32,000 nt of DNA from Candidatus Lokiarchaeum ossiferum (lineage in GTDB: Archaea > Asgardarchaeota > Lokiarchaeia > Sigyniarchaeales > Promethearchaeaceae): contig CP104013.1 of the NCBI GenBank assembly GCA_025839675.1, positions 5,280,001-5,312,000 on the forward strand, given 5' to 3'. Shown piece after piece: positions 13,089 through 31,901 of the stretch. Numbering within the stretch: position 1 is the stretch's first letter; each line of letters begins with the position of its first letter. The position numbers and the translations under genes were made by a program. Below the pieces are notes generated by a model that made no database searches, had not been told where the DNA came from, and saw only the letters and a program-made list of their open reading frames with translations.

Positions 13089-14933
13089 GTGAGTGAATTT
13101 TAAAAACTTAAAATTTACCGTTTTTTCGTTTTTTTCTTAATTCTGCTTCCCACTTCCGACGTTTATCCCAAAATGCTTTTTGTCGTGGATTTAAAGCAAT
13201 CTCTTGAAGTTGACAAAAACCTGAATCTCGTGCTAGTTTAATCCACATAGAGTTTGTTTTAAACTCCCTTCCAGTTGAAAATGCACTTAATTTCGTCAAT
13301 AAGTCAGTTCTACCTAATTTATATGCTGTAATTGCTCGCATTAAATCCAGTATATATGTTAAGGTACGATGAAGGTGGGCCATATTCAATCCACGAGTAT
13401 TTAATCGTTTTTGATTATAAAATGTAGGGTTTGCAGATTGACCTGCTTCAACTAAAGGTCGTTGAGCATACATTAATAATATGTCTTGCTCTGTCCATCC
13501 AGGTGGAAAATAATCGGAATTAAACCAAAATCCTTTTTTTAATTCCCGAGTTGGATGAGTTTTAAGGTGTTTTGGTGCACGAAGCAAAGGAAAAATGCCC
13601 CGATCTTGATAAAATTCCAGACTTTTCTTACAATACGTACCTGTATCACCCATCACCATCTTCCACTCTCCAATTTTAAGATTATTAAAAGCGGTAAAGG
13701 TTTTGCGGGATGCTGGTTTATCGTTCATATTGCCTGGAAAAGTCTCAAAATGTATTGGAAGTGCCCGTTTCCAGCTCCCACAATACGCATAAAGTGTCCA
13801 ATGAACAAATCCAACACCAAGCTTCTTCCCTGAATGACGATAATATCCAGCATCACTATCATTATACTTTGTTGTTTTTGAATTTTTATTGTTGTTACAG
13901 TTCGTTCTGACAAATTGACCATCAAAAATCATGATTCTAGGAATGATTATCCTAAGATCAATAAGCTTCACGAACTAAGTTATGAAAATAATCCATGACT
14001 CGGGAAAGAGGGATACGATTCATAATATAACTGATATCATCCGCGGAGGGAAAGTAGTAAGAATCATGTAAAATCCCCTTCAAAGGATTATCACCAATAA
14101 AATATGACATTTTTTCTAAACCTGAATAATCTTTGAATCCAAGCTGGCGACGAAGTAGTTCAAATGCGATAATATCATGAAGGAACATTCCTTTGAAATG
14201 AACTCCCTGTATCTCCAATTCATCTTGAATTTTATCAAAGTAACTAAGATCATTCATTTCAAAGATATGATTGAAATATCCTGAAAATTTTGGTAGCGTG
14301 TGGAGCATATCCCACTCTGACTGCGGAAGTATGCCTTTTGCATAATCATCATAAGTTGTTTGCCCAAGATTGCGAAATCGCATGAAGTACTTCCGTTTGG
14401 GAAGAATATGTGCAATATTTCCGTATATATAATGCTCTAATCGTGTTTGGGATTTAGAAACTATCAATGAAGGGGCTTTCCGGGCGTGACGCTTGAATGG
14501 AAACCATTTAAATTTTTTATATACATAGCGATATGTCTTTGGAATCCACATTTCAAGTATTTGAGTTGATTTCAGACCGATATAATCATGTAACTGCATT
14601 TGATATATTGAAGGCCGTCGTCGATATTTGAATATTAGAATAGCTGATGCACCCCAGATATTGAATATATTAGTGTAAGGAAAACAAGAATAAAATTGTT
14701 TTGGTTTTTATATTATCTAAAATCTTGAAATTGGGCATGATTTTATGCTCATCATCAGATCATTTAAGATCCACTAATTTGGCCTAGCAAACGGGAAATT
14801 TTGTGAATGCTAAAAAACGTGTCCACTTTTGCTCGACAAAATTAAATGTGGTATAAAATGGGGGATTCAAAGCCAATGGGTGATAAATTACTAAAAAAAG
14901 TGAAAATTACAAAAAGTACGATTCACTCAAGTA
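13089..14933 (-). mobile_element. IS4/IS5-family insertion sequence; ends not confidently defined
   Basis: It contains the split transposase. The only terminal-repeat candidate I found is short: GAGTGAAT 13091-13098 versus ATTCACTC 14921-14928, each abutted by AAGT (13087-13090 and 14929-14932). In AT-rich DNA this could be chance. Confidence 0.35.
13108..14599 (-). pseudogene. IS4/IS5-type DDE transposase split into two overlapping ORFs by a frameshift
   Basis: ORF 14599-13958 (213 aa) has an InsH/DUF772-like N-terminal region (FELLRRQLGFKDYSGLEKMSYFIGDNPLKGILHDSYYFPSADDISYIMNRI). ORF 13971-13108 (287 aa) is DDE_Tnp_1-like, with candidate triad IMIFDGQF / VMGDTGTY / YAQRPLVEAGQ. By codon phase (14599 = 1 mod 3, 13971 = 0 mod 3), joining them needs a +1 or -2 shift. 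Confidence 0.75.
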
Positions 14934-15954
14934 AATTTTCCTTTTTTTTTAACAAATCAAATGATTTCTTTCGTGACATTTTTTTTTTACTCTCTCTATT
15001 TTCAATAATTTTGACTTATTTTGATCTAAAATAACGACAATTTCTCTATTTGTTGCTTTATTTCTCAATTAGAGCCTTTAAGTCAAGTTGTTTAGAAAAA
15101 TTGACCTTCTTCCATCATTCCAAATTCTAACTCTACGCTATAGGATGCCAATCCCATTATCTTTAATGTATCAACTCAAATCACATAATATTTATATAAT
15201 CCACTGACAAAATCTATTTTATGGTGTCTAATTAAACTTTATTCCCCCGAATCTGATTGGAGAACAATAATTTTTTTTTGTGCTCTGATTAGTTCAGTAC
15301 ATTGAAAAAAAGTTTGTCATTCTGCGGTGCGACGTGAAAGCTATATAATTGAATGCAAATACAATTTGAAATTTGCCCTACTGATGACGTAGTGAAGCTA
15401 TCCAAACATGCGTACTTGGTAACAAGTGGGTGTGAAGCTCTGGAGACAATGTACTTCTTTTTGTGAACACACAGAAAAAGAAGGCTAGCTTGGGTTCCTA
15501 TGGTAAACGAAAGTGAACTGGTATTTAAACCTCGTAAGACAAACGATGGCGAAATGTGTTGATACGCCAAGCTAAAATAGCACTATTGTTGGTAAAGTAT
15601 ACTCGCGGGTTATACTTTTGTCATCCCTTTAGCAATCGGGGAAGAGCCAGTACCTAAGGGAGCTGTTAAAAGTCAATTATCTGGAACACGGTAAGTCTAA
15701 TGATCCCCATTGACATGGTAGCGTAAGGTCAAAATGACCGCCACTCATCGAGACTGGCTATGCTATACAGAATGGTAACCTAAAGGTAACTGAAGGTGAT
15801 GGATCAGTAGATAGAGGATGTCGGAGAAAGCTAAAGCATGACTGTAATCGTTGTGATAAATGCAAATGCATTAACGTGAAAACGTGCCCACTTCCGACTG
15901 GTAAACAATGTAGAAGAGATTCGAGAAAACTCAAAGAAAAGTAGTGATTACACA

Positions 15955-17427
15955 TTGAAGAAAATCAATGAATCAAACAAAGAACGGCATGAAGTTCAAG
16001 TCTGTTGGTCCAAAATTGATTGGATCTCAGTCTGCTCATACGTCGAGCGATTACAGGATCGAATCTACATAGCAACTGAAAAGAAAGAATTTCGAACGGT
16101 AAAAAATCTTCAAAAATTAGCAATTCGTTCGCATTATGTAAAATTGTATGCAATACGAAATGTTACACAACTTAATTCTGGTCGGAAAACACCTGGAATT
16201 GACGGAATCACATGTCTTAATAATAAAGAAAGAGAATCACTCTACGAGATAGTTAAAACTTTCTCTTACAGTTCAATTAAGTCGTATCATCCAAAACCAG
16301 TCAAGAGAATTGAAATTCCCAAGGCAAATGGAAAGCTACGACCTATTGGTATTCCTACTGTGTTTGACAGAGTAATCCAAATGCTTGTCAAAATCGCTTT
16401 AGAACCTGAATTTGAACAAAAATTTCACCAAAACTCTTTCGGATTTCGTCCTGGACGATGTTGTCAAGATGCTGTTGAGGTTATTAACTACACAATTAGA
16501 TATGGTAAAGGTGAATATATCTTAAATGCAGATATAACTGGTTGTTTTGACAACATTGCTCATTCAACCCTTTTATCCGAGTTGCACGTCTTCAAACCTC
16601 TTGTTAAGAAATGGTTAAAGGCAGGAGTTTTGATTAATAATCGCAAATACGGAACAGAGAAAGGCACACCCCAAGGAGGAATTATTTCTCCTCTTCTTAC
16701 TAATATTGCTCTCAATCGTTTGGATTATCTATTTAATCGCAAAATTTCTTATCGTGGCAAAGAATATCAGACTACTCTTGTTAGATACGCTGATGACATA
16801 GTCATTTTAAGCACTAGTAAAAATTTTCTTGTTAGGATCAAAGATGTACTTGCGAAAACACTTTTGAGACAGGGGTTAACTTTAAATACCAATAAAACTG
16901 TCTTGATTCATAAATCGGAAGGTTTCAAATTCCTTGGATTCCATTTTATTCAACATCCCTATAAAACTCTTTGGATACAACCTGAAAAAGCATCCGTTCA
17001 ACGTATGCTACACAAACTCAAAGTTCTTTTAGATTCGCACAAGCAGATAAAAAGTGACGCTCTAATTTATGCGTTGAACAAGCGAATCTTGGGTTGGGCA
17101 CGCTATTATCAATACTGTAGGATAAATGGTATTTTTAATCGGATGGATTCAATTGTATTTAGATGGATCTGGAAGTGGTGTACCAGAAGGCATCCTCGAA
17201 AACCAAGAAAATGGTTAAGGCAAAGGTATTTTAAAGCAGTCAATTCTTTGAACTGGGTTTTCTCAGGTGATATATGGAGTCTTTCTTATTTTGTAGATGT
17301 TAAGCGCAAGAAATATCGATGGCGAGTAGGAAAGGAGAGTTATTTAAATCCTCGAGAAAGAAAGTTGTGGAAACAAAATAATATATGCAATTCTATCTAT
17401 AATAATGCAAATTCAGTCTTTTCTTAA
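15955..17427 (+). CDS. Group II intron reverse transcriptase/maturase (no recognisable HNH endonuclease domain)
   Basis: RT motifs: RKTPGIDGI (RT0), IEIPKANGKLRPIGIPTVFDRVIQ (RT1/2), FGFRPGRCCQDA (RT3), ADITGCFDNIAH (RT4), GTPQGGIISPLLTNIALN and LVRYADDIVIL (RT5, YADD), KFLGFHF (RT7), and maturase X motif RILGWARYYQY. The start is a TTG. The frame is open from 15880 with no in-frame ATG nearby, so the N-terminus is uncertain. Confidence 0.9.
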   Translation: MKKINESNKERHEVQVCWSKIDWISVCSYVERLQDRIYIATEKKEFRTVKNLQKLAIRSHYVKLYAIRNVTQLNSGRKTPGIDGITCLNNKERESLYEIVKTFSYSSIKSYHPKPVKRIEIPKANGKLRPIGIPTVFDRVIQMLVKIALEPEFEQKFHQNSFGFRPGRCCQDAVEVINYTIRYGKGEYILNADITGCFDNIAHSTLLSELHVFKPLVKKWLKAGVLINNRKYGTEKGTPQGGIISPLLTNIALNRLDYLFNRKISYRGKEYQTTLVRYADDIVILSTSKNFLVRIKDVLAKTLLRQGLTLNTNKTVLIHKSEGFKFLGFHFIQHPYKTLWIQPEKASVQRMLHKLKVLLDSHKQIKSDALIYALNKRILGWARYYQYCRINGIFNRMDSIVFRWIWKWCTRRHPRKPRKWLRQRYFKAVNSLNWVFSGDIWSLSYFVDVKRKKYRWRVGKESYLNPRERKLWKQNNICNSIYNNANSVFS

Positions 17428-17557
17428 ATTCTTCTGTCATAGAAAAAGTAATTGGAAGTCGCAAAAGAGCTGTTGATACCGCATTTAGGGATATTCAACC
17501 AGATTACTGTGACCTGAACGAATTTGAGTTGTGGTGACGCATCAGTTCTATTTGCTT

Positions 17558-17591
17558 GAGCCACTTACTTTGAAAGAAATATGGGTGGTTC
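17558..17591 (+). ncRNA. Group II intron domain V (catalytic hairpin)
   Basis: GAGCCACUUACUUU-GAAA-GAAAUAUGGGUGGUUC is 34 nt. It has the AGC triad at positions 2-4, a GNRA (GAAA) tetraloop, and a basal GAGCCAC/GUGGUUC helix with the typical G-U pair. Confidence 0.85.
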
Positions 17592-17594
17592 TGA

Positions 17595-17629
17595 GGGGGG
17601 AACGGGTTAGTAATAACCTTGCCCTACCC
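17595..17629 (+). ncRNA. Group II intron domain VI with bulged branch-point adenosine
   Basis: Hand fold: G95-G97 pair with C27-C29; U25/A26 are bulged; G98-G600 pair with C22-C24; A01-C03 pair with U19-G21; G05-U08 pair with A15-C18; 6-nt loop. A17626 lies 6 nt before the proposed 3' end at 17632. Confidence 0.65.
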
Positions 17630-17632
17630 GAC

Positions 17633-17998
17633 CGTGGGGAACCCTTCCATCCATTGGGTGGAAGAGGTTCTCAGGGTCAAGCTACCTTTCAGAGATATTG
17701 GCACACTTGTCGTTGGTACCATCCATTCCAGTGATGAATGCTAGGATGTCTTCCCATTGATGAGTCCCATGCCACGAAATTTCGTCCGTCCCCAAAGCTA
17801 CCGATGCAATTCTTCGGGGTTTTTCTTTCCACACAAGGGGAACCGAGACTACAGCCAGACTTTCATGGTTCACAGGGAGAAAAGAAGAATCCATATGGTT
17901 TAAGAATTTCAAGTTCAAATTTGAAATGAAAAATTGGCAGAGTTTTAGCGCACTCTACCAAAGTGCGAATTCAGAAAGCGCTGAATTCGGTGAATAAT
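17633..17998 (+). ncRNA. Structured non-coding leader of the IS110 element; candidate bridge RNA
   Basis: The 366 nt are visibly richer in G+C than the flanks, with no convincing ORF. Hairpins found by hand: GAACCCUUCCA...UGGAAGAGGUUC (~17639-17670), palindrome ACGAAAUUUCGU (~17774-17785), CGCACU...AGUGCG (~17949-17967), and GAAUUCAG-aaagc-CUGAAUUC (~17967-17987). Confidence 0.3.
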
Positions 17999-19504
17999 AT
18001 GACAACTTTATTGAAGAAAAAACTTTCGATCAGTGATAGTTCTCCTCTATTGATCCCCATAAATGACGATTCCCACTCAGAACTTGAGACATTTTCAGAA
18101 TATGGGATAGGTATGAATGTTCATAAAGACAGTATTGCTTTATGTGTCAGTGGTAGGCTTCCTACCAACGATTATGTACAAATTCAAGAACACAATTTCA
18201 AGAATACTTATGTAGGAGTCAATGAATTATGCCAATTCTTAAAAAGATTCAGCAAAGCTACAACTTTTTTGATGGAGTGCACAGGTGTGTATCACGTAGC
18301 CCTATATCGGGCACTTCAAGAGAAATTTCCTCACCAAATAGACATCATCATAGCCATGAATCCCCTTCTTGTTCATAATCGGATTGAGGATTTGGGATCC
18401 AAGACAGATCGTGCTGATGCCCGCACTTTGTCATCCTTAGCACTCTACCATTCAATTCTCAGACCAAGATATGTGGGAAGTGTTGTTTTTTTTGCAATCA
18501 GAGATCTTATGCGCTCCTACCATCGAAACACAACGCAAGTGACAAGGTTAATAAATCGAATTCATCGACAACTTCATTTGGCGAATCAAAAGTTCAAGTT
18601 TGATCTGAATGCCGAGTGGGGACTTCATTTGCTGGATCAATATATCAATCAATCGTGGTCTTTGGGAGCTTGTTATAATCATTTGTTCTCAGATTTGAAA
18701 ACTAAAGGTAAATACAGAGTTTTAGAAAAGAAGCAAGAAGAAATTGTACCTCATGCGGAGGTGATTTTAGCAGATACACAACGATTTATCCTTCAAATGG
18801 ATTTATTATGCTTAATGAGCAGTCAACAATCCAGTGCAAACTTTCTTCATGAAACAGAACGACAAGTTCTGCTCACTCCAAGCTTAGCCAAACATTATCA
18901 GCATATGCGCATCATTCCAGGCTTTAGTTCTGCAACCATTCTAACTGTGTTGACGAAGATTGGTGATTATTCACGCTTTCGGAATGCCAATATCTTTTGC
19001 AAATTTTGCGGAGTCGTTCCGAACATTCAGCAAAGCGGCAATTACTCTGCCAAAGGACATGTGAATCGCTTTACCAACAAACACTTACGATCGGCACTAT
19101 CCCAAGCCGCAGCAGCTGTCATTGGACGGTCTAATAAAGACACGGATATCGATGCATTTGCCTATAAGCAACGTTTTCTGCGACATATGCCCTTTAAAAA
19201 AGCAATGTTGAAAGTAGCTCAGAAATATGCTCGGATTCTGTATGGAATGTTCAATGAGATTCGACAATATGATCCCCACTTTGAAATTAATCGGAAAAAG
19301 GCAAAACGATTGAAAGTGCGCTTAGAAAAGCAGAATAATTTGATAGAGAGTGTCCAAACCCGAGCTTTGAAACGCAATATATCAAATTTTTTAGTAGCAA
19401 ATTCAGAATTATTGAACAGTACAAGCCGCTATCATTTATTTACTGGCTTTCACCGTTTAATTCAGAAATCTCGATACAGGGAGAAGGAGGATCACACCAA
19501 ATAA
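17999..19504 (+). CDS. IS110-family (DEDD + Transposase_20) transposase/recombinase, 501 aa from ATG 17999
   Basis: N-terminal RuvC-like motifs: IGMNVHKDSIAL (Asn where the first Asp is expected), FLMECTGVYH, SKTDRADARTL. C-terminal motif: IIPGFSSATILTVLTKIGDYSRFRNANIFCKFCGVVPNIQQSGNYSAKGHVNRFTNKHLRSAL. I prefer ATG 17999, preceded by GGTGA at 17989-17993, over the ORF-track GTG at 17963, which lies inside a hairpin. Confidence 0.85.
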   Translation: MTTLLKKKLSISDSSPLLIPINDDSHSELETFSEYGIGMNVHKDSIALCVSGRLPTNDYVQIQEHNFKNTYVGVNELCQFLKRFSKATTFLMECTGVYHVALYRALQEKFPHQIDIIIAMNPLLVHNRIEDLGSKTDRADARTLSSLALYHSILRPRYVGSVVFFAIRDLMRSYHRNTTQVTRLINRIHRQLHLANQKFKFDLNAEWGLHLLDQYINQSWSLGACYNHLFSDLKTKGKYRVLEKKQEEIVPHAEVILADTQRFILQMDLLCLMSSQQSSANFLHETERQVLLTPSLAKHYQHMRIIPGFSSATILTVLTKIGDYSRFRNANIFCKFCGVVPNIQQSGNYSAKGHVNRFTNKHLRSALSQAAAAVIGRSNKDTDIDAFAYKQRFLRHMPFKKAMLKVAQKYARILYGMFNEIRQYDPHFEINRKKAKRLKVRLEKQNNLIESVQTRALKRNISNFLVANSELLNSTSRYHLFTGFHRLIQKSRYREKEDHTK

Positions 19505-19725: not shown

Positions 19726-22700
19726 ATGACCCAATCTGGAGTGAAGGGAAATTCTACAGCAAGTCCCACACAGTTAATCTCAGAATTATTCCATCCCGAA
19801 GGGAACTATACTTTCTTGGTGGGGGCAGGAATATCGATGAATGCCCCAGCGAATATTCCTAGCGCGGTCCAATTCGTCAAGAGCATTTTGGAACTTTGTG
19901 CCCCCCAAGAAGAAATAGACTCCATTCTCTCTTTACAATATCTACGGTATGAATTACTCATCGAGAAATTCAAAATCTATCTGGATACCAATCTACATTT
20001 CTTAGATTACTTAGAATTCGCAACCCAACCTAATCTACTTCACTTATTTTTAGCGAGTGCTTTACTGCATAAACAGTATTTAGTAACCACCAATTTTGAC
20101 TTCATGCTGGAGCGTGCCCTTCAAGCCATTTTATTACCCACCGAAGAATATAAAATTGTGCCAGTGATAACAAAAGCGGATTTTGGACGAGATTTTCGCC
20201 CATATGATTTAGTAGAACAAGGATTGTGTCCGATCTACAAAATTCATGGTTCCAAGAAAAATATTATAACGGGTGAAGATACCGCAGGGTCTCTGATCAC
20301 CACTATGGGGTCATTAGGAAGAGATAGGGCGATCGGGGAGACTTTTACGTTAGAGGAATATAAACAACAGCCTTTCTACAATTTAGTTAAAGGCCGTACC
20401 TTAATTGTCATGGGCTATTCGGGGAGTGATGACTTTGATATCGGTCCGATGTTAATGAATCTCCCGACCATTGAAAATTTGGTATGGATAGATCATTCTT
20501 CTGATAAGCATTGGAAAATTAATTGTATCGCCCCAGTTTCAACGTCGAATTCTTTCAAGAATCCTTCTTCAAAGACCTCCCAATTATTGCACAATATCGC
20601 ATCGAACATCAATATTTCAGTATATCATGTATTAGCCGATACTCATGACTTCGTGAAAACCGTTTTATGGCCAAAAATGATGCCTAATTTTCCCTTAGTA
20701 TCGGAAGAAATTCTACAAAACACCACCAAACTTCCCGATTTTAATCAATGGATTCAACAAGAATTCCAAAATGATTTACCAACGATGGTGAAAAAATGGC
20801 AATTTGCATGTTCTTTATATGCGGATTTTAATCAATGGAAGGCGCTAGGGCGTTGTGCAAAGAATGGGTTAGAAGAAAGTCAAAAGATTAATGATCCTCT
20901 CTCTCAAACCCTTTTTTTGAATTACTTAGGTAAAGCTCAAGCAAAACAGCTGAAGTTGTATTCTGCTATGCAACATTTTCAAGAAGGTTTAGATATTGCA
21001 GAAAAAACAGATCAGTTCGAATACATGGCCACTTTTATCAATAATGTCGGGGTGATCAGCAGTTATCTTCAATATGTGATGGATTCTTCCCAAAAAGAAG
21101 CCACTCTCGAAATGTTTGAAAATGCTCTCACGGTATTTGAACAACATCAAAATCAATGGGGAAAAATCGCCACTTTAACCAACATTGCCGGAATTGAATT
21201 TTTTCAAGGCAATTATTTGGAATCTAATAAGAATTTGATGGAGTCTTATACTCAAACTCAACATTTGGGCAACTTGGCATTCAAAAGTGTTATTTGTTAT
21301 GATTTAGCTATAATATGTGAATTTCTGATGTCTGAAAAAGACGTCCTAAACAATTATCATGAAGGGATTTCCATTAATCACCAGATGGGGGATGTTATAG
21401 GAGAATTAAATGGTCATTTTCAACTCCTTCAATATTGGTTCATAAAAGGAGATTATAAACAGGCAAAATCGGCCTTTTTACAAGCTCTCTCGCTTGGTTC
21501 TAAATGTAAAAATGAATCTTTGATTGCTGATCTCTATTCATGGAAAGCGTGGGTTGATTATAAAACCAATAATCTCGGCTCAGCCATTCAAAATATGCAA
21601 AAAACGTTTCAAATGTATGAGTCTTTGCAAAAAATAGATTTAGTGCGTTTATGGCAAGCTCAATCTTTAAGTGACCTTGGATATTTCGAATTTGGGCAAA
21701 ACCAACCTGAAAAAGCTTTAACTCATTGGAAACAAGCGCTCGCTCTAATTGAAGAAAAAAATCTCCATTCGCCTTACATTGAAATTATATCCAAACAACT
21801 CAACGGGAATATTAAAATTGCGCAAGATGAAATAAGGGTTCTTCCCTCACTCGATAATATCCTTCCTTACATTTCTGACCTTACTCATCATTTAAACTCG
21901 CTAGACGACAAAATTAAATTTTTGGAAAAGGCAATTGCTTCAGAATTCAAGTCTATTGATCTTCCTCCCTTTGAAGATCCTTTTCAAGGGAAAGTATACG
22001 CTAAAATTGATGCTCTCTTTGATCTTGGCTATTTATTCCTTACTAATCGAGATTCTATCAGAAGTACAGAAAAATTTGAACTTGCAATCGATCTTATTTC
22101 TCGCTTAGAACAATATTCCATGCTTGAAAGACATTTTGAAAATTTTGCTCATCTAGGTATTATTTGGAAGAATATTAGGGCGTATCGAACCCAATATTTC
22201 TTCCTAACTCAAGATGATTTTGATTTGACACAAGAAAACCTTAGTTGGATGGCTAGTTGGCACTCGCGGTCAAAATCAAAGGATGCCTTTAAATTTATGC
22301 ATCAAGCCCAGGATTGCTTCAACGATGAAAAATATACGGAGGCGATCGAATTATTTTCAAAAGCGAAAGACATCTTTGAAAAACTTGGGGAAACACGACA
22401 AGTGCAAGAAATCCAAGAAACCATAGATACGGTTCTAGTATTGAATGCGGTTGAAAATAAAAATTTGAAAGAAGAGATGACAAAAGATCCTGAATCCACC
22501 TTAAAAGTCTTGCAAACTCTACAGAAAATGAAGCTTCGTGGAAAATCAAATTCAACAGAAGAAGAAGATTCAGAATCTATTAAAATTGCTGAAGATAATC
22601 AAGATGATTCTTTTTCTAGTTTAAACGGGGTGTTCAACCGCGATTTGGTTTCTTCTACTCAATTTTTAATCACTTTGGAAGACAAAGGGCGTAACATCGA

Positions 22701-25008
22701 TTTTGTCCAAGACCATGATGATGAATTTTTCAATACATTGAGTAAACTTGATATGGCCTTAAAAATGTCTGAATCCATGGATGCAAATCAACCTTTGGAA
22801 AAGGTTGATTTGCTCGTTTTTATGGGTCAATATCTCGCGCAAAATAAAGAATTTACCATGGCTCAAGAACGGTTAGAGGAAGCCTATCACATTTCGAAAG
22901 TCTATGGGCGGGAAGCAAAGTCATATCTCGCAGATATTTGCAAAGGATTTGGGAATTTATATTATCACCAAGAAAAATGGGATGAAAGCTTACGGTATTT
23001 TGAGCAGAGTGTGAGGTTATATGAAACACTTCACAAATTAAAAGATGCGGCGATCTGTTTAAACATGCTCGGAGTTGTAAATCTTAAAATTCAAGATAAT
23101 CAAAGGGCATTATTTTATTTTGAGCAAGTCCAAAAATTCCCTATAAATGAAGAAAATGCTGAAAAAGTGGCAGAAAATTTAGTTAGGGCTGCTGAACAAC
23201 ATGAATTTTTTGGTCATTTTCAGCAGTCCCTTTCCTTTTTGCTGCAAAGTCAACAAATTTATGAAAGCTACCAGATCGAATCCAATATACTCGCTCCAAC
23301 ATATTTGAAAATTGCTCAACTCTATTTTTTAGTTGGTCATTTTGATAAAGCGCTACCTTATTATGAAAACGCTCTGAAACAATATCAACTGAGTGGTGAC
23401 ACTCATTATATCACGGTCTTACCCAAAAAAATTGAGGAATTGCAAAATAAACAACCTGATCAAGAAGTGCGATTAAAGGCTTTCTTTCATAAGGCGGAGG
23501 CCATGTGGGGTTCTGATGAACCCTTGAGTGACCTCTTGAAAGCTTATCAGAAAGTACTATTTATTGAGAGTTTTATTCCAAATATTGAGATTAAAGCAAA
23601 AACTTATTATAATCTCGGAGTTATTTACTCGATTTTAGGCGATCCCTATCATACACGAACTAATTTAGAAAAATTCTTTCAATTACTGGATTCAATTCCT
23701 TCAGATCCTCCTCTTGAAGAATTGAAATCGGATGCAACCACAAAACTTAACTTGGTTAAAGCCATTCCCGATTCCATTGAATTCTATGAAAACCAATTGG
23801 AAGATTTGCTCACAGAAGAGAATTATATCCAGGTTGGGAAGGTATATCGTCATCTTCTTCGTTTTTTTAATTTAAATCGGGATTATGGGAAATTAAGTCT
23901 AGCTTTATATAATTTTGCTCAAATTACCTTTACCAATTTGAATAATTTTAATGAAGCTATGCTTCTTTTTAAATTCAGCGCAGATGTATTTGCGCAATTA
24001 GGGGATGAACAAAAACGAAATGAAATTTGGAAAGAGCTTTCATCACAATATTTCACCCATGAACAGAAAGAGAAAAGTGTGGAATTTTGCCTAAAACTTG
24101 TGGATTATTATAAAGATCATCCTAATGAAACAGAATTATGTAAAATGGCCAATTTCACCGGAAATATCTATTCTGATTTACGAAAATATGAATTAGCAAG
24201 TAACTATAAAGAAATTGCTTTGAATTGTTGTAAAAGCTTGGAACTCCCTGATGAAAAACTGGATATTTTAATTGGTTTAGGATTCGTACAAGAACAGCAG
24301 GCAAATCTGGATGCTGCTTTACAAGCTTACCAAGAAGGTTTGCATTATGCTATCGATCAACAACATTCTGTATACATTCAAGCTTTCAATATTAATCTTG
24401 CAGAAATCAACTATTTTCAAGGAAATTTTCCGAAGGCAGAAGAATTCTCTCAAAAAGCAGTTGAATTATTTGATACCGTACAAATTGGAGATTATCTCGC
24501 CGTCGCTCATTCTCGCTTGGGGGATCTCCATTTTGATCAAAATGAGATCGAAAAAGCTCAGGAGTACTATGCCAAAGCGTGTGACTTTCACCAACAACAA
24601 GGAAATCAAGTAGATTTCTGGAATACTCAGCTAAAATATGATTTTTGTAAATATAAAATAGATCCTACTGAATTCTCTATTGAAGTATTTGATGAACGAG
24701 TAAAGGAGTGTGAACCCTTTGAAAATTCAGATACAAAAATTGAAATTTATATGACCATTGCCAAAATATGTGTTTCTCAGCAAAAATTTGAGAAAGCGCA
24801 AACTTTCTTCACTTTGGGATTGAGTTTAAGTGAACTACTTGCAAACGCCCTTTTTACAGCCTTTATTCTATATCTTTGGGGAAAAATGGAGTTTTTAAGT
24901 TTAGATAAGCCAGTAGGTATTGAAAAACTGACTCTCGCGAAAGATAAGTTTAAGCGGATAAATAACCCTGAAATCGAACAAGATATTCAAAAATTGCTCG
25001 AAAATTAA
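19726..25008 (+). CDS. SIR2-like (SIR2_2-type) domain fused to about 1400 aa of TPR repeats, 1760 aa
   Basis: SIR2 motifs: YTFLVGAGISMN (GAGIS 19822-19836), LVTTNFDFMLERA (Asn123, 20092-20094), YKIHGS (His174, 20245-20247), LIVMGYSGSDDFDI. The rest is KLC-like TPR units, interrupted by an acidic/Ser-rich linker (...STEEEDSESIKIAEDNQDDSF...). No Walker A motif was found. Confidence 0.85.
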   Translation: MTQSGVKGNSTASPTQLISELFHPEGNYTFLVGAGISMNAPANIPSAVQFVKSILELCAPQEEIDSILSLQYLRYELLIEKFKIYLDTNLHFLDYLEFATQPNLLHLFLASALLHKQYLVTTNFDFMLERALQAILLPTEEYKIVPVITKADFGRDFRPYDLVEQGLCPIYKIHGSKKNIITGEDTAGSLITTMGSLGRDRAIGETFTLEEYKQQPFYNLVKGRTLIVMGYSGSDDFDIGPMLMNLPTIENLVWIDHSSDKHWKINCIAPVSTSNSFKNPSSKTSQLLHNIASNINISVYHVLADTHDFVKTVLWPKMMPNFPLVSEEILQNTTKLPDFNQWIQQEFQNDLPTMVKKWQFACSLYADFNQWKALGRCAKNGLEESQKINDPLSQTLFLNYLGKAQAKQLKLYSAMQHFQEGLDIAEKTDQFEYMATFINNVGVISSYLQYVMDSSQKEATLEMFENALTVFEQHQNQWGKIATLTNIAGIEFFQGNYLESNKNLMESYTQTQHLGNLAFKSVICYDLAIICEFLMSEKDVLNNYHEGISINHQMGDVIGELNGHFQLLQYWFIKGDYKQAKSAFLQALSLGSKCKNESLIADLYSWKAWVDYKTNNLGSAIQNMQKTFQMYESLQKIDLVRLWQAQSLSDLGYFEFGQNQPEKALTHWKQALALIEEKNLHSPYIEIISKQLNGNIKIAQDEIRVLPSLDNILPYISDLTHHLNSLDDKIKFLEKAIASEFKSIDLPPFEDPFQGKVYAKIDALFDLGYLFLTNRDSIRSTEKFELAIDLISRLEQYSMLERHFENFAHLGIIWKNIRAYRTQYFFLTQDDFDLTQENLSWMASWHSRSKSKDAFKFMHQAQDCFNDEKYTEAIELFSKAKDIFEKLGETRQVQEIQETIDTVLVLNAVENKNLKEEMTKDPESTLKVLQTLQKMKLRGKSNSTEEEDSESIKIAEDNQDDSFSSLNGVFNRDLVSSTQFLITLEDKGRNIDFVQDHDDEFFNTLSKLDMALKMSESMDANQPLEKVDLLVFMGQYLAQNKEFTMAQERLEEAYHISKVYGREAKSYLADICKGFGNLYYHQEKWDESLRYFEQSVRLYETLHKLKDAAICLNMLGVVNLKIQDNQRALFYFEQVQKFPINEENAEKVAENLVRAAEQHEFFGHFQQSLSFLLQSQQIYESYQIESNILAPTYLKIAQLYFLVGHFDKALPYYENALKQYQLSGDTHYITVLPKKIEELQNKQPDQEVRLKAFFHKAEAMWGSDEPLSDLLKAYQKVLFIESFIPNIEIKAKTYYNLGVIYSILGDPYHTRTNLEKFFQLLDSIPSDPPLEELKSDATTKLNLVKAIPDSIEFYENQLEDLLTEENYIQVGKVYRHLLRFFNLNRDYGKLSLALYNFAQITFTNLNNFNEAMLLFKFSADVFAQLGDEQKRNEIWKELSSQYFTHEQKEKSVEFCLKLVDYYKDHPNETELCKMANFTGNIYSDLRKYELASNYKEIALNCCKSLELPDEKLDILIGLGFVQEQQANLDAALQAYQEGLHYAIDQQHSVYIQAFNINLAEINYFQGNFPKAEEFSQKAVELFDTVQIGDYLAVAHSRLGDLHFDQNEIEKAQEYYAKACDFHQQQGNQVDFWNTQLKYDFCKYKIDPTEFSIEVFDERVKECEPFENSDTKIEIYMTIAKICVSQQKFEKAQTFFTLGLSLSELLANALFTAFILYLWGKMEFLSLDKPVGIEKLTLAKDKFKRINNPEIEQDIQKLLEN

Positions 25009-25056
25009 TTTTTATCTTGAACTTTTTCTCCAATTCACTGTAATGCATTATTTTTA

Positions 25057-25710
25057 TTATTTTTTACCTCCAAGTACATAAATCCGGGATATTTTGATTT
25101 CGGAAGGATTAGGTTTCCGTGTTTCTGAGAATTCAATGTCAAATCCCCCTTTTTTGAATAACTCGTGGAGTTCTTCTACTTGAAATTGTGAAAAGTAGAG
25201 GTGGGTCGGAATCTCAAATACTTCTTCTAAGTATTCTTCTGCTTTCCCTTCTTTTACAACAACCAGCAATTTTCCATTAGGTCTTAAAATTCGGTAAAAT
25301 TCTTGGAATATGGCTGGAATACTTTTCTTTGGTGTATCAATAATTGAGTAATAAGCAATAATGCCATCAAAAGTCTCATTTTCAAATTTTAAATCTATTA
25401 AATTCATACGATAAAAATCTATTGAAGGATATAAATTTTGAGCCATTTGAATACACCGATCAGAAATATCAACACCAACGACCTCTAGGTCCAAATTGAC
25501 CAAGAAATTTCCAATATGAAATGAAGGACCGCACCCTGCATCTAAAATTTTCGCTTTTTCAGTAAATAAACCTGCAAAATTCGTTAAAATTTGGCGATCA
25601 TAGGGTTTGTCATCGAGTTCATTTTGAAATAATTCGTGGTATTTCTCAGAAATCAAATTATATGATTTGCGGGTATTCTCATGAACATCGTTTAGATCTA
25701 TATTCTTCAT
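25057..25710 (-). CDS. Class I SAM-dependent methyltransferase (Methyltransf_11/25-like), 217 aa from ATG 25710
   Basis: Motif I is KILDAGCGPSFH. The post-I acidic residue is in VVGVDISD. Motif IV-like sequence is FDGIIAYYS. The ORF-track start at 25722 is a TTG; an in-frame ATG lies at 25710. Confidence 0.8.
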   Translation of the reverse strand: MKNIDLNDVHENTRKSYNLISEKYHELFQNELDDKPYDRQILTNFAGLFTEKAKILDAGCGPSFHIGNFLVNLDLEVVGVDISDRCIQMAQNLYPSIDFYRMNLIDLKFENETFDGIIAYYSIIDTPKKSIPAIFQEFYRILRPNGKLLVVVKEGKAEEYLEEVFEIPTHLYFSQFQVEELHELFKKGGFDIEFSETRKPNPSEIKISRIYVLGGKK

Positions 25711-25992
25711 TGCACATCTCAATTAATCATTATGTCTCCCTTCAAAATAATTATTTTCAACCTTTTTCAAGGTTTTATGAGAATACTGTTTTCAGAAATA
25801 ATTTACTTGTTTTTAAAAATGGTAAAAATTAATTTCTTGTAGAATGCATTTTTGACTGAATTATTGAAATTTTCTTTATCCTTCCTCATGATATGTTTTA
25901 TTCCCCTTTATTTTTAAAGGAATTATATTGTGCTATATCACCAATATTATTGGTGGGACAAGATTTTTTTACCCATAAACGATCATCCCCGT

Positions 25993-28566
25993 ATGAATAT
26001 AAAAACCTTAGAAATGCTCAAACAAGGAAAAGCGGTTTTTTTCATTGGTGCGGGTATTTCTATGATTCCTCCTTCCTGTCTACCAAGTTGGTGGCAAATC
26101 AATCATATTATTTTGGATGCTTTGGAAAGTGAAGCCTCCAGTCTTATTCCACAGGAAACAAATATCGTTAAATTGATTAAAAAACGGGAAGAAGATGGGA
26201 AACTTCCTCCCGAATATGTTGCAGAAATCATAACAAATCGTATTGGGGATTCATACTTTGAAGTTTTACAGGGGTTAGAAGGAGAATCTCCTAATGAAGC
26301 TCATTTGTGGTTAGCAGTTTTGGCAAAAGCAGGATTGTTACCTGCAATTATTACTACCAATTTCGATACTCTAGTTGAGCGAGCCTTTGATGCCGTAGGT
26401 GTCCCGCTGGAAGTTATCGTTGATCCTAATGAGTATCTCGATGTTCCTAAACTCCTTGAAAATCATAATCCGAAAACTTCCCCTTGTCTTTTGCTTAAAT
26501 TGCATGGAACTGCCACACGACCGAAGACATGCATTGATACATTGGCTCAAAGAAAACGTGGATTACATCCAAATATTAATCAAGCTTTAAATTGTCTTGG
26601 ACAATCCAAATTTTGGATCTTTTTAGGGTATTCAGGTAGTGATTTAGAAGCCGATCCTGGTTATTTGGGCATACGAAAACGTATAAAGGATTCTCCAGGT
26701 TTTGCATGGTTACATCTCCCAAATCAAGAGCCATTATCAGTTGTTTCGGATTTAGCAACTGCGTATGGTGAAGATCGAGGTATTATTGATGTAGGAATAT
26801 TACCACAATGGTTTAATACATGTTCTACACTTCTTCCACCAAGGATCGTTGTACCACAGTTCATTTCATATACAAATGAAGAAATTAAACAAATTAAATC
26901 ACAAAAATTAAACCGTGTAGTTGAATGTGCACGATCTTGGGCTTCCGATCGAAGTAATTCTACTTGTGCAATCTTGCTTTCTGATATTGGAAATAACGCA
27001 GGACTTTACGATATTTCCCACCAATTAATTCAATCTATTTTATCCAATTCAAATATTGTTGATATCGATGGATTCAATTCGGGGATACTTCACTCGCAAT
27101 TAGGTGAAATTGAGAAATTCCATGGAAATTATGAAATTGCCCTAGAGAATTATCAAAAGGCAGCTGATCATTTTAAGTCTTGTAATCATACCGATGGATA
27201 TATTACGAGCTTAGGTGAAATTGCTCTCATTCAAGCAAATTTTGGGGAATTTGATAAAGCCATTGCAGTTACCAAAAATAATTTGAAGTACAACCAAGAT
27301 CTTTCTGATAATGAAGGAATAATTCATGCTTACTTAAATTTGGGAAGTCTTTACCGAGAGAATGATAATTTCGACTTGGCAAAAAATGTCTACTTACAAG
27401 CAATTAAATTTGCTGGACTACATGGTTTAGAGGTTTTACGGGCCAATGGATTACTTGGGTTAGGTCAAGTTGAAGATATTCTCTCAGAAGTTGACGCTGC
27501 TGAAGAAAAATTTCAAGAAGCTTATAACATATATTCACGATTGGGTGATGATGCTTTTGTTTCTGAATCGTTAAGATCTCTTGCTGGTATTTATTCTCGA
27601 AGAGGCGATTTGGTTCGTGCATTAAATTATCTATCCAACGCTTTACAAAAAGCAGATATGACTGGAAATAAATCACGTTATGTTCGGGCGCAAAAGGATA
27701 TCGCAGATATATTATTACAACAAGGCAAAAATAATGAAGCTCTTACACAACTCAAAAAAGCGAGCCAGACTGCTGAAGAACTCAACAATATTTCCCTTTT
27801 AATTACGCTTTGGCAAAGCATCGGTAATATCTATCAAAACCAAGGAGAACTCGATTTAGCTCATGAAATCTTTTCAAAATCATTAGAAAAAGCAAAACGA
27901 TTTGGATTAAAAGTCAAGATTGCAGGTCTGGAAAACAATCTCGGTATTATATCTGAACAGAAGGGTAATATCGATCACGCTTTGGAATATTATTGTCGAG
28001 CCAATGCTGCTTTCCATGAGACACATCAAGTTGAATCTCGAGCGGGAACTTTGGGGAATATTGGTAATATATTTTTGAGAAAGGGTGATTATAACAAAGC
28101 ATCGGAGAAATATCGTGAATCTCTTCGAATATTTGAACAATTAAATAATGTGGATGGAATAATTCGAACTCAGTACAATCTCGCTAATGCAAAGTATTAC
28201 ACTGGAGAAGTTCAAGCCTCCCAAATTTATTTTGAAAAGGCTATCAAATCTGCTGAAAAATATCAGCAGATTAATCTACGAGATACTTTCCAAATGAACT
28301 ATGCAAGTGTATTATTTGGCCTTGAGAATTTTGATGATGCGATTAGGATGTATTCTCAAGTGAGTAATTCTTTCTCAGCACGAGAAGATTACTATCAAGC
28401 TGGTTTGGCAAGTTATTATTGTGGATTGGCTTTTATCAAAATGCAATCAAGAGATGATGCTATATACTTTCTTGAACTGGCAATCAATTCTTGGAACAAG
28501 TTAGATACTATGCCAGAACAGAAATCTGAAATTGAAAATATCCTTCTTTCATTAAATTCTACATAA
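25993..28566 (+). CDS. SIR2-like (SIR2_2-type) domain fused to TPR repeats, 857 aa from ATG 25993; paralogue of 19726-25008
   Basis: SIR2 motifs: AVFFIGAGISMI (26047-26061), IITTNFDTLVERA (Asn123, 26359-26361), LKLHGT (His171, 26503-26505), IFLGYSGSDLEADP. About 13 KLC-like TPR units follow (for example LGNIGNIFLRKGDYNKASEKYRESLRIFEQL). I prefer ATG 25993 to the ORF-track GTG 25930 because it places the Asn at the same residue number as in the paralogue. No Walker A motif. Confidence 0.85.
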   Translation: MNIKTLEMLKQGKAVFFIGAGISMIPPSCLPSWWQINHIILDALESEASSLIPQETNIVKLIKKREEDGKLPPEYVAEIITNRIGDSYFEVLQGLEGESPNEAHLWLAVLAKAGLLPAIITTNFDTLVERAFDAVGVPLEVIVDPNEYLDVPKLLENHNPKTSPCLLLKLHGTATRPKTCIDTLAQRKRGLHPNINQALNCLGQSKFWIFLGYSGSDLEADPGYLGIRKRIKDSPGFAWLHLPNQEPLSVVSDLATAYGEDRGIIDVGILPQWFNTCSTLLPPRIVVPQFISYTNEEIKQIKSQKLNRVVECARSWASDRSNSTCAILLSDIGNNAGLYDISHQLIQSILSNSNIVDIDGFNSGILHSQLGEIEKFHGNYEIALENYQKAADHFKSCNHTDGYITSLGEIALIQANFGEFDKAIAVTKNNLKYNQDLSDNEGIIHAYLNLGSLYRENDNFDLAKNVYLQAIKFAGLHGLEVLRANGLLGLGQVEDILSEVDAAEEKFQEAYNIYSRLGDDAFVSESLRSLAGIYSRRGDLVRALNYLSNALQKADMTGNKSRYVRAQKDIADILLQQGKNNEALTQLKKASQTAEELNNISLLITLWQSIGNIYQNQGELDLAHEIFSKSLEKAKRFGLKVKIAGLENNLGIISEQKGNIDHALEYYCRANAAFHETHQVESRAGTLGNIGNIFLRKGDYNKASEKYRESLRIFEQLNNVDGIIRTQYNLANAKYYTGEVQASQIYFEKAIKSAEKYQQINLRDTFQMNYASVLFGLENFDDAIRMYSQVSNSFSAREDYYQAGLASYYCGLAFIKMQSRDDAIYFLELAINSWNKLDTMPEQKSEIENILLSLNST

Positions 28567-30008: not shown

Positions 30009-30923
30009 TTAGAAATAGAGCATGATTTTTTGAACTTCTTCTTTCAATGCTGTGGTTTTTGCTAAAATCTCTTCTGGATTGGTGGTAGTAACATTATTAT
30101 ATCCAATACTTAAGAAGAATTTTCGCTTGCTATGTGTAAAACGTGAGATTTGGATTGAAGTTGGCCCTGTTTGTAATGAAAAATCCGCCATATTCAATTC
30201 CACTTTTTTAGACTCAAAGCTAGAAAATAATTCTGGTGCGACATTCTTCATCATTTCTTGGTCTACACTGGAAGCAAAATAAGACCCAATCTCGACGAAA
30301 TTTTCAGAATATATTATGATAAAGTCAATATTTTCTTGGAAATTATTTTTTTCCACAAATTCTGAGAATATCACGCCAAAATTATCCATTAAAATCGAAT
30401 TTCCCATTAATGCTTTCGATAATGCGTGAATGACTGAGATTGGATTGAATATGGAAGTATGGAAAATATCGGCTTCAAGAGGTTTCGCCATCTCAACGAA
30501 TTTTTGCCCTACTGTTTCAGCAAGCCTCATTGTATCTGCATCAAGTTCCATTCCTGGATCCAGCTTGTTAATCACAATATTGATTTTCGCTTCAGGACTA
30601 TATTCAAGAATGGCTACTCTCACTGCTTGGAAATAATTAATTGCATCATTAAAAGAACTTTGATCTTGAATATCAATGACATAAAAACATTCATCAATAT
30701 CAGAAAAATTTATCTCAGCTTTTTTTATGTGCTTCTGGCGAAGTTTAGATTGGCCTCCAAGATCCCAAATGACGATTTCCTTATCAAGAAAGTTGATCTT
30801 TGTTCTCTCTATTCCTTTTGTGGGTTTAAGTTTACTTAGGGCTTTAAATTCGCGCTGAAATGTTTTTACAATGCTTGTTTTGCCGGAGTTATCTATTCCT
30901 ATAATGGGTATTTTGATTGCCAT
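30009..30923 (-). CDS. Small GTPase with a C-terminal roadblock-like domain (Rag/Gtr-like architecture), 304 aa
   Basis: G1 GIDNSGKTS, G2 PTKGIE, G3 WDLGGQ, G4 NKLD, and a G5-like HTSIFNPISVIHALSKAL (compare Rag/Gtr TSIWDxxxxxAWS). A further ~130 aa follow (NFGVIFSEFVEK...IDFIIIYSENFVEIGSY) in the position of the Rag roadblock domain. Confidence 0.75.
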   Translation of the reverse strand: MAIKIPIIGIDNSGKTSIVKTFQREFKALSKLKPTKGIERTKINFLDKEIVIWDLGGQSKLRQKHIKKAEINFSDIDECFYVIDIQDQSSFNDAINYFQAVRVAILEYSPEAKINIVINKLDPGMELDADTMRLAETVGQKFVEMAKPLEADIFHTSIFNPISVIHALSKALMGNSILMDNFGVIFSEFVEKNNFQENIDFIIIYSENFVEIGSYFASSVDQEMMKNVAPELFSSFESKKVELNMADFSLQTGPTSIQISRFTHSKRKFFLSIGYNNVTTTNPEEILAKTTALKEEVQKIMLYF

Positions 30924-30995: not shown

Positions 30996-31901
30996 TTAGA
31001 AATAGTTCATTAACTTCTTAATATCTTCCAAAAGATTAAACGAGTCCATTATTAGAGGTGATGCATCAAGAATTTTGGTAGAATCGTAGCCAAAAGTGAA
31101 ATAAAATGGTTCTTCTCCTATTTCAAATGCAATCATATATAATGTGATTTCTTTTACTTGAAGTGATATTTGCGACAAATTTAATTGTTTTTCTGTAAAA
31201 GTTTTAAATATTTCATGGGAAATATCTCGCATTTGTTGCTGATTAATTGCAGGATTGAAATAGTTTCCAATTTCCATCAGATTTTTTGTAAAAATCATTA
31301 TAAAATCACAACCATTTCCTTTGTTAATAAATTCCATGAATAATATTTGAAAATTATCATAAAGTGTTGTATTCTGGAAAATTGGCTTGGAAAATGCGCG
31401 TATAACATTTATTGGGTTGAAAATTGATGTCTTTGCAATTCTAATATTTAATGGTTGACTGAGTTCCAGAAATTTTTTTTGAAGGGTTTCATACATCTTG
31501 ATATGATCTTCACTGGCTTCAAAACCTGGATCAAATTTATTTATCAGCAAATTGATGGTAGCATCTGGAGAGTATTCCAAAATTGATTCTTTAATATCCC
31601 CAAAAAATGTCATTGATTCCGTCATTGCATCTTGATCTTGAAAATCAATAACAAAGAACAATTCTTCAATGCCGGAAAAATAGGTTTCTGCCTTCTTTTT
31701 ATAGGATTCGCGATATTTTTCTTGACCACCAAAATCCCAAACGACAATATCTGAATCAAGGAATTTTAGCTTGGAACGTTCAATTCCCTTGGTGGGTTTA
31801 ATGGCTTTTTCCAAGGTTTTAAATTCTCTTCGCAGAGTAAGGATTAAACTTGTTTTTCCTCCTCCCGCAATTCCTAAAATTGGTAACTTTCGAATAGGCA
31901 T
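30996..31901 (-). CDS. Small GTPase with a C-terminal roadblock-like domain (Rag/Gtr-like architecture), 301 aa; paralogue of 30009-30923
   Basis: G1 GIAGGGKTS, G2 PTKGIE, G3 WDFGGQ, G4 NKFD, and G5-like KTSIFNPINVIRAFSKPI. It is colinear with the neighbouring gene along its whole length. By eye the identity looks like roughly 40%. Confidence 0.75.
   Translation of the reverse strand: MPIRKLPILGIAGGGKTSLILTLRREFKTLEKAIKPTKGIERSKLKFLDSDIVVWDFGGQEKYRESYKKKAETYFSGIEELFFVIDFQDQDAMTESMTFFGDIKESILEYSPDATINLLINKFDPGFEASEDHIKMYETLQKKFLELSQPLNIRIAKTSIFNPINVIRAFSKPIFQNTTLYDNFQILFMEFINKGNGCDFIMIFTKNLMEIGNYFNPAINQQQMRDISHEIFKTFTEKQLNLSQISLQVKEITLYMIAFEIGEEPFYFTFGYDSTKILDASPLIMDSFNLLEDIKKLMNYF

Follow-up and report, generated by a model that had tools for sequence, protein, structure and literature searches.

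Two adjacent SIR2_2-TPR proteins of Candidatus Lokiarchaeum ossiferum as candidate ligand-gated, NAD+-consuming members of a large Asgard family

The stretch analyzed here (the window) comprises 32,000 nucleotides of contig CP104013.1 of Candidatus Lokiarchaeum ossiferum and contains two genes, P1 and P2, each encoding an N-terminal SIR2_2-type domain followed by a long array of tetratricopeptide repeats (TPR). By analogy with characterized relatives, each protein is most likely a self-contained, ligand-gated and NAD+-consuming switch. P1 and P2 are independent single-chain members, not the two halves of a two-gene system, of a SIR2_2-TPR family that is very large, occurs almost only in Asgard archaea and has several paralogs per genome. 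An initial annotation made from the sequence alone had taken them for an NAD-targeting defence system. The SIR2 domain of the NAD-cleaving type, the TPR arrays and the lack of a nucleoside triphosphatase (NTPase) all held, while the framing as a pair within a defence island did not, and should be dropped for this locus.

The two genes and the parts of their products were located as follows.

19726..25008, plus strand: P1 gene, an open reading frame (ORF) of 1760 aa for a SIR2_2-TPR protein of the long subfamily (about 1700-1900 aa)
19726..20730, plus strand: P1 SIR2_2 (SIRim-type) catalytic domain, aa 1-335, as predicted by AlphaFold2 (AF2) model, Foldseek and profile search
20092-20094, plus strand: codon of P1 N123, motif TTNFD121
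20245-20247, plus strand: codon of P1 H174, motif IHGS173
20803..21795, plus strand: first TPR block of P1, about aa 360-690 (TPR_12, TPR_2 and TPR_10 at aa 321-700; NCBIfam TPR at 401-679)
21796..22755, plus strand: apparently helical middle region of P1 (about aa 691-1010), which contains an acidic low-complexity stretch and matches TPR/MIT-like families weakly
22756..25005, plus strand: second TPR block of P1, about aa 1011-1760 (Pfam TPR_12, TPR_2, TPR_1 and TPR_MalT at 1074-1628; TPR at aa 1001-1200)
25930..28566, plus strand: P2 ORF as listed, open from GTG 25930, 878 aa
25993..28566, plus strand: P2 gene from its likely ATG start, 857 aa, of another subfamily than P1
25993..26862, plus strand: P2 SIR2_2 catalytic domain, aa 1-290 counted from M22 (Pfam SIR2_2; partial PADLOC matches; AF2 alpha/beta fold at 1-280)
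26359-26361, plus strand: codon of P2 N123, numbered from ATG 25993
26503-26505, plus strand: codon of P2 H171, numbered from ATG 25993
26875..28557, plus strand: P2 TPR superhelix, aa 295-855 (AF2 model; Foldseek; Pfam TPR_12 in 7 stretches)

The SIR2_2 family (Pfam PF13289; gathering score 24.5) was detected above its cut-off at the N-terminus of both proteins, with 30.6 bits (4e-7) in P1 and 43.8 bits (3.6e-11) in P2. The motifs GAGIS, TTNFD, xHG[ST] and GYSGSD were present in both at the positions initially reported; in P1 the motif scan gave GAGIS33, TTNFD121 (N123), IHGS173 (H174) and GYSGSD230. The catalytic-position residues N123 of both proteins, H174 of P1 and H171 of P2 also agreed with the earlier reading, provided that P2 is numbered from ATG 25993. 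As the N-termini of the P2 homologues all coincide with the equivalent of M22 (MNIKTL...), this ATG is almost certainly the true start, which would give a protein of 857 aa. Across 113 family members, N123, H174, the NAD-binding loop GAGxS, TTNFD and GYSG.D were invariant, and the fuller set of GAGxS, PN..H, TTNFD, K.HG, GYSG.D and a Trp was invariant or nearly so. Such invariance indicates that the SIR2 motifs of P1 and P2 are not a product of chance.

The remainder of both proteins was assigned in Pfam to TPR families including TPR_12, TPR_MalT and SNAP. The arrays spanned roughly 1425 aa of P1 (TPR_12, 1e-47) and 560 aa of P2 (TPR_12, 8e-47), close to the approximately 1400 and 550 aa estimated at the outset. 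The full-length AF2 model of P2, with a predicted local distance difference test score (pLDDT) of 87.7, consisted of an alpha/beta domain at residues 1-280 and was all-helical from residue 295, forming a solenoid of about 13 uninterrupted helix-pair repeats of about 40 residues each with no alpha/beta insert. Foldseek found that this solenoid resembles the peptide-binding TPR domains of LGN/Pins and OGT (TMt 0.5-0.68). In P1, the middle region at aa 691-1010 is the one stretch in the two proteins that could not be assigned confidently to a family; a Pfam search at E<=1 returned nothing there beyond weak TPR, MIT and FliS-like matches, and its conservation across the long-class homologues (33-38%) was on par with that of the TPR parts.

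No Walker A or Walker B motif was found in P1 or P2 by scanning for GxxxxGK[ST], [AG]xxxxGK[ST] and hhhhD[DE], and the sole GKS of P1, at residue 939, lay inside the acidic stretch. Pfam, extended to E<=1 over the unannotated stretches, detected no NTPase, SLOG, Piwi or HerA family in either protein, and Walker A was absent from all 146 database homologues retrieved. These sensitive searches, together with the continuous TPR of the P2 model, gave no sign of a cryptic NTPase and upheld the earlier statement that Walker A, SLOG, pAgo and HerA parts are missing. As a separate observation, the metagenomic homologue P0147 (3154 aa) had, besides an intact SIR2 domain at the N-terminus, another SIR2-like domain in degenerate form (TTNQD, no HG, GYP) near residue 2620, with about 2000 aa of TPR between the two.

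The type of SIR2 domain was assessed by structure and profile comparison. The AF2 model of the P1 N-domain (pLDDT 85; predicted template modelling score, pTM, 0.88) adopted a Rossmann fold with a helical insert and extra strands, and had no zinc ribbon; no CxxC zinc module was found in the SIR2 domain. Foldseek ranked KomC, the SPARSA Sir2, Sir2-HerA, Avs5 and FAM118B ahead of classical sirtuins (E>0.01). When a profile of the family was compared with the Protein Data Bank (PDB), DSR2 came first (6.9e-13), followed by the SPARSA Sir2 (1.5e-11) and then by KomC, FAM118B and ThsA; classical sirtuins gave short matches at E>=9e-5. In the same profile search, the catalytic Asn and His were aligned with TTNYD and KVHG of DSR2. 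By sequence and model, the N-domains of P1 and P2 thus belong to the SIR2_2/SIRim subfamily of the sirtuin superfamily, nearer to the immune SIR2s than to the classical sirtuins. Those members of this subfamily that have been characterized are NAD+-cleaving enzymes, typically switched on when their oligomeric state changes (10.1101/2024.09.18.613514; PMC12700824; PMC11850899).

By analogy with these relatives, the SIRim-type domain would bind and cleave NAD+ by means of Asn123 and His174 (P1) or His171 (P2), while the C-terminal TPR superhelix would bind a protein or peptide ligand and may also govern self-assembly. A ligand-driven change of oligomeric state would then open the SIR2 site and switch on the NAD+-cleaving (NADase) activity, as in DSR2, Avs5, ThsA and FAM118B. 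We infer both the NAD+ cleavage and the ligand gating with activation by oligomerization from these precedents.

Among known systems, P1 and P2 would work most like DSR2 of Bacillus subtilis. The likeness extends to an N-terminal SIR2_2-type domain with aligned Asn and His, which is the best profile match among solved structures, and to a single chain without NTPase whose long C-terminal alpha-solenoid is thought to be the sensor. Full-length DSR2 chains were also among the Foldseek matches to the P2 model, but with a TM-score of only about 0.2. DSR2 possesses its own MID domain and HEAT-like C-terminal domain (PMC11850899), the latter of which binds phage tail tube protein. P1 and P2 have TPR instead, and no DSR model of PADLOC matched either protein. 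Moreover, DSR2 is bacterial defence-island cargo, whereas the SIR2_2-TPR family consists mostly of fixed chromosomal Asgard genes. The parallel with DSR1/DSR2 drawn initially therefore survived for the SIR2 profile and the effector-plus-solenoid layout, and failed for the defence-island setting and the C-terminal domains; with a TPR sensor, no DSR model match and a different genomic behaviour, P1 and P2 are not DSR2 proteins.

Other SIR2 systems were more distant in layout, and, as the initial annotation had stated, the defining features of Avs/STAND, SIR2-HerA, Thoeris and SPARSA were all absent. Avs5 (AVAST type 5, SIR2-STAND-TPR) shares the SIR2 effector (fold match 9nc9, E 2e-5) and the C-terminal repeat sensor, but has a central STAND NTPase driving filament assembly, of which P1 and P2 have none. 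SPARSA and KomC gave the best structural matches to the SIR2 domain of P1 (8y80, TMq 0.60; 8zsf, E 2.9e-7), and the N-domain of P2 matched the Aga_SIR2 models of PADLOC partially, in the SIR2 motif region only; however, the window contains no APAZ/pAgo or KomA/KomB partners, and TPR arrays are absent from the SPARSA and KomC systems. FAM118B/SIRanc is of the same SIR2_2/SIRim subfamily (Foldseek match 9r0p; profile E 2e-7), although FAM118B is short, forms filaments and has no TPR. Thoeris ThsA differs in that no SLOG, Macro or TIR match was found in P1, P2 or the neighbouring ORFs of the window, and SIR2-HerA in that the window neighbours are a methyltransferase, a CheR, GTPases and transposases, with no HerA gene. 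With the PADLOC model PDC-S65, P2 and its relatives matched only about positions 120-190 of 592. Membership in a catalogued defence system was rejected, as the PADLOC matches were only partial SIR2-motif or generic TPR matches and none was full-length.

The initial annotation had treated P1 and P2 as two divergent copies of one system, possibly conserved together with the antisense methyltransferase between them and the downstream CheR gene. The search of GTDB representative genomes for related loci by one peptide pattern yielded 173 coding stretches, the best 80 of which were used for the locus analyses. A second SIR2-TPR copy within 10 kb, sought with a hidden Markov model of the N-domain, was present in none of the 80 loci, and the P2-like loci were solitary, with no second SIR2-TPR gene within 8-10 kb. 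P1 and P2 shared 22% identity and belong to different, old subfamilies. Because of this low identity, the intervening antisense gene and the lack of a second copy in the 80 loci, a two-gene system was ruled out; the pairing was seen in this window alone. The methyltransferase and CheR genes were likewise rejected as conserved partners, since no counterpart of the CheR-like gene was found near the homologues in the 80 loci and the methyltransferase had only weak generic matches, in 4 of them. The adjacency of P1 and P2 is best explained by a local rearrangement in a transposon-rich region.

The extent of the family was estimated with a profile built from 25 N-domains, which was searched against 1.84 billion representatives of clusters at 50% identity. 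This search gave 1199 clusters at E<=1e-30 and 4662 at E<=1e-10. Word-index searches with the two N-domains returned 174 and 26 matches, nearly all from Asgard archaea, the sources being Promethearchaeota/Lokiarchaeia, Hermod-, Hel-, Hod-, Sigyn- and Thorarchaeota. The best 80 GTDB stretches came from 61 genomes. Two or three loci were present in 18 of these, one being the genome of the cultured strain Promethearchaeum syntrophicum MK-D1 (NZ_CP042905.2, loci L039 and L057). In the source annotations, the homologues were named only 'SIR2 family protein' or 'tetratricopeptide repeat protein'. The nearest relatives of the P1 N-domain were 63-66% identical to it, and P1 could be aligned end to end with homologues of 1708-1890 aa at 25-31% identity. 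An identical P1 protein was also found on two Logan contigs, which carried Arf/RagA-like small GTPases and an OST3-like thioredoxin as well. The closest relatives of the P2 N-domain, P0001-P0004, showed 52-56% identity.

Full-length members fell into sharp size classes of about 600, 803, 810, 945, 1050 and 1700-1890 aa. Three of these classes were compared for conservation along the chain. The SIR2 domain and the TPR region showed 63-73% and 54-67% identity, respectively, in the 803-aa class, and 67-77% and 62-71% in the 810-aa class, so that in these two classes the conservation of the TPR part came close to that of the SIR2 domain. The third was the long class, of which P1 is a member; here the SIR2 domain showed 61-68% identity and the TPR and remaining region a clearly lower 32-40%.

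Relatives outside the Asgard archaea were few. A scan of IMG/VR detected family relatives of at most 30% identity and no close copies on viral contigs. A eukaryotic sister clade was considered and rejected, as the single EukProt match, P0013 (GEZN01006892.1), retrieved only metagenomic relatives and no eukaryotic ones. P0013, an Ala-rich protein of 486 aa from a eukaryotic transcriptome set, was 40% identical to the P2 N-domain and may represent contamination or a rare transfer. Loki-type SIR2-TPR genes were also observed in L061 and L067 (DATKTW01, labelled Candidatus Nanopelagicaceae bacterium) and in L009 and L019 (labelled Odinarchaeota H3M.118). Counterparts in Promethearchaeota genomes shared 86-96% identity or synteny with these genes, and the bins look mislabelled or mixed.

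The gene neighbourhoods of several subfamilies were fixed. The 803-aa class, found in about 20 genomes with 41-92% identity, showed a conserved order of two or three low-molecular-weight (LMW) phosphatase genes on the opposite strand, the SIR2-TPR gene, nadB, and genes for ADH synthase, a subtilase and either ERCC4 or a membrane protein. The nadB gene (L-aspartate oxidase; 693 bits versus a curated cut-off of 629) was co-directional and located a median of 108 nt downstream of the SIR2-TPR gene in 19 loci. These loci were the following.

L012-L032, e.g. L019:412-7072 and L027, co-directional: 803-aa SIR2-TPR gene and nadB, often with a Macro-domain gene nearby

The Macro-domain gene was upstream of the SIR2-TPR gene in about seven loci. 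One long-class group was flanked by genes for DinB, a class II aldolase and a TIM-barrel protein, and also by nadC (277 bits versus a cut-off of 198), which was four genes away in L010, L011 and L043. P2-like genes neighboured succinyl-CoA ligase, cytochrome bd and UbiA genes, or PHP, SfsA and acetyl-CoA synthetase-type genes. The linkage to nadB and nadC points to a possible functional tie of the SIR2-TPR enzymes to de novo NAD synthesis.

A survey of defence genes covered 292 neighbour-family representatives located within four genes of about 75 loci, searched with PADLOC at 1e-10. The specific defence matches were one type III CRISPR-Cas locus (a Csm4/Csm5/Cas6 set) and a CARF/Csx1 match. 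The other matches were generic, namely methyltransferases, AAA ATPases, helicases, TnpB, the conserved subtilase and a radical-SAM protein. The neighbours were mostly housekeeping genes, and in our judgement there was no obvious enrichment of defence genes. Contrary to the defence-island association proposed initially, a single CRISPR locus was thus found among about 75 neighbourhoods, and the homologues were largely core, syntenic genes forming fixed subfamilies beside nadB, ADH synthase, subtilase, ERCC4, DinB and nadC. The immune role was weakened by these fixed, syntenic subfamilies and the scarcity of defence neighbours.

As for the biological role, we give about an even chance to a host-integrated, NAD+-linked stress or regulatory switch, possibly including the sensing of infection, and regard it as somewhat more likely than a classical mobile antiviral cargo. 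It is favoured because of the fixed synteny, the TPRs conserved in two classes, the housekeeping neighbours and the linkage to nadB, nadC and Macro genes; immunity is favoured because of the enzyme ancestry and the layout. Several points weigh against the host-integrated role. To our knowledge, all prokaryotic relatives so far characterized in this SIR2 clade are antiviral effectors, so that a dedicated immune role stays a strong prior. The region around the P1 and P2 genes in this window is itself plastic and contains mobile elements as well as a toxin-immunity pair. In the long class, the much lower conservation of the TPR than of the SIR2 domain would be compatible with a diversifying sensor. 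The linkage to nadB and nadC concerns subfamilies other than those of P1 and P2 and could simply be inherited synteny. In addition, the neighbour survey used simple ORF calling and representatives with no matched background, and 'not enriched' is consequently a judgement, not a statistic.

A dedicated antiviral sensor of the DSR2 kind is possible, with a chance well short of even. On this account, a viral protein bound to the TPR would free the SIR2 domain, NAD+ would be depleted and growth halted in an abortive infection, and two copies would widen the range of viruses recognized. The SIR2 domain is closest to those of DSR2, SPARSA Sir2, KomC, Avs5 and ThsA, all antiviral NADases, and the combination of effector and repeat sensor fits, as do the many paralogs with TPR arrays very unequal in length (450-3154 aa), the faster divergence of the long-class TPR regions than of the SIR2 domain, and the mobile-element-rich locus beside a toxin-immunity module. 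However, no PADLOC model matched any family member over its full length, CRISPR appeared at one of about 75 neighbourhoods, and the subfamilies were syntenic with housekeeping genes and had conserved TPRs; furthermore, the pairing of P1 and P2 was unique to this window and no close homologues were found on viral contigs.

It is unlikely that the proteins are NAD+-dependent protein modifiers, i.e., lysine deacylases or ADP-ribosyltransferases whose TPR recruits host substrates for a housekeeping regulation expanded in Asgard archaea. The conserved, vertically inherited orthologue groups with conserved TPRs would suit this function, and so would the housekeeping neighbours, among them a gene with an ADP-ribose-processing Macro domain and an acetyl-CoA synthetase-type gene, the latter at a single P2-like locus, and the similarity of the TPR fold to the peptide-binding TPRs of LGN/Pins and OGT. 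Nevertheless, the domain is of the SIR2_2/SIRim class and is devoid of the zinc module that sirtuins use for acyl-lysine peptides, and classical sirtuins matched weakly in both comparisons (Foldseek E>0.01; profile E>=9e-5 over short stretches). Cryptic STAND or ternary-conflict proteins whose NTPase has degenerated, or scaffolds that have lost catalysis, for which only the unassigned aa 691-1010 of P1 would leave room, are highly improbable and appear largely refuted already by the lack of Walker A/B in P1 and P2 and of Walker A in the 146 homologues, the lack of any NTPase family at E<=1, the SIR2-plus-continuous-TPR model of P2 and the invariant catalytic Asn and His.

Concerning earlier descriptions, eukaryotic SIRim proteins fused to TPR-like domains have been illustrated (10.1101/2024.09.18.613514) and a published tree marks SIR2_2 proteins that carry TPR (PMC12700824), while a survey of Asgard defence makes no mention of SIR2 or TPR (PMC11291487). 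SIR2_2-TPR fusions have therefore already been drawn in published trees and figures. In the library that was searched, we found no paper describing the Asgard SIR2_2-TPR family itself, in line with the initial suggestion that it is undescribed.

From bacteria to humans, NADases of the SIR2_2 (SIRim) type recur as immune effectors, and no known organisms are more closely related to eukaryotes than the Asgard archaea. The family described here, with more than 1000 clusters at 50% identity, fuses a SIRim effector directly to TPR without a STAND NTPase and has no assigned function. If its members are ligand-gated NADases, they would represent a minimal effector-sensor design and a new entry point to NAD+-based signalling or immunity in the lineage ancestral to eukaryotes, and the linkage to nadB, nadC and Macro genes hints that some members serve NAD homeostasis rather than defence against viruses. 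A bolder proposal, to which we assign a rather small chance, is that Asgard archaea pass on vertically a repertoire of many paralogous SIRim-TPR NADase receptors lacking an NTPase, which would act as chromosomally fixed, germline-style sensors for innate immunity or programmed dormancy, nearer in logic to eukaryotic repertoires (SAMD9, FAM118, SIR2-NLRs) than to bacterial defence-island cargo, with at least one paralog wired to de novo NAD synthesis via the operon-like link to nadB. The value of these findings lies at the level of the family, in its Asgard-wide expansion, the nadB linkage and its occurrence in a cultured strain, and not in this particular locus.

The other features identified in the window were the following.

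2-11533, plus strand: giant ORF of at least 3843 aa, running past the left edge of the window, whose sole match, a weak one at the C-terminus, was to a deaminase toxin family
11526-13088, plus strand: SUKH (SMI1/KNR4)-leucine-rich-repeat (LRR) gene, immunity-type, overlapping the end of the giant ORF
13108-14599, minus strand: two adjoining ORFs of 287 and 213 aa with weak DDE_Tnp_1/IS1634-type transposase matches
15378-17632, plus strand: complete-looking group II intron (Rfam D1-D4 domains at 15378-15556; catalytic 3' domain at 17556-17632)
15955-17427, plus strand: reverse transcriptase/maturase ORF of the group II intron, between the Rfam intron domains
17963-19504: IS110-family transposase, after the group II intron
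25057-25722, minus strand: methyltransferase gene, antisense, separating P1 from P2
28732-29982, plus strand: solitary CheR-type methyltransferase, extended by about 140 aa at its N-terminus and not accompanied by further chemotaxis genes in the window
30009-30923 and 30996-31901, minus strand: tandem pair of small GTPases, each of about 300 aa, that match the Gtr1/RagA and Arf types and have long extensions at the C-terminus

The three mobile elements noted initially beside P1 and P2, namely the group II intron, the IS110 transposase and the DDE transposase fragments, were found, and the two ORFs at 13108-14599 are probably one transposase gene frameshifted into two. The toxin/immunity module was recovered as the SUKH-LRR gene following the giant ORF. 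The C-terminus of the latter matched a deaminase toxin family at 24.7 bits, below the cut-off of 29.6, and no other Pfam domain was detected in it; the two genes are laid out like a polymorphic toxin and the protein conferring immunity to it, which would here occur in an Asgard archaeon. The G+C content was 34-38% over the P1 and P2 genes compared with 27-33% in the giant gene, in agreement with the earlier observation. The host, at first recognized as archaeal, was specified as Asgard (Loki-type) by the homologues and the neighbouring genes, among which the tandem small GTPases are typical Asgard eukaryote-like signature proteins.

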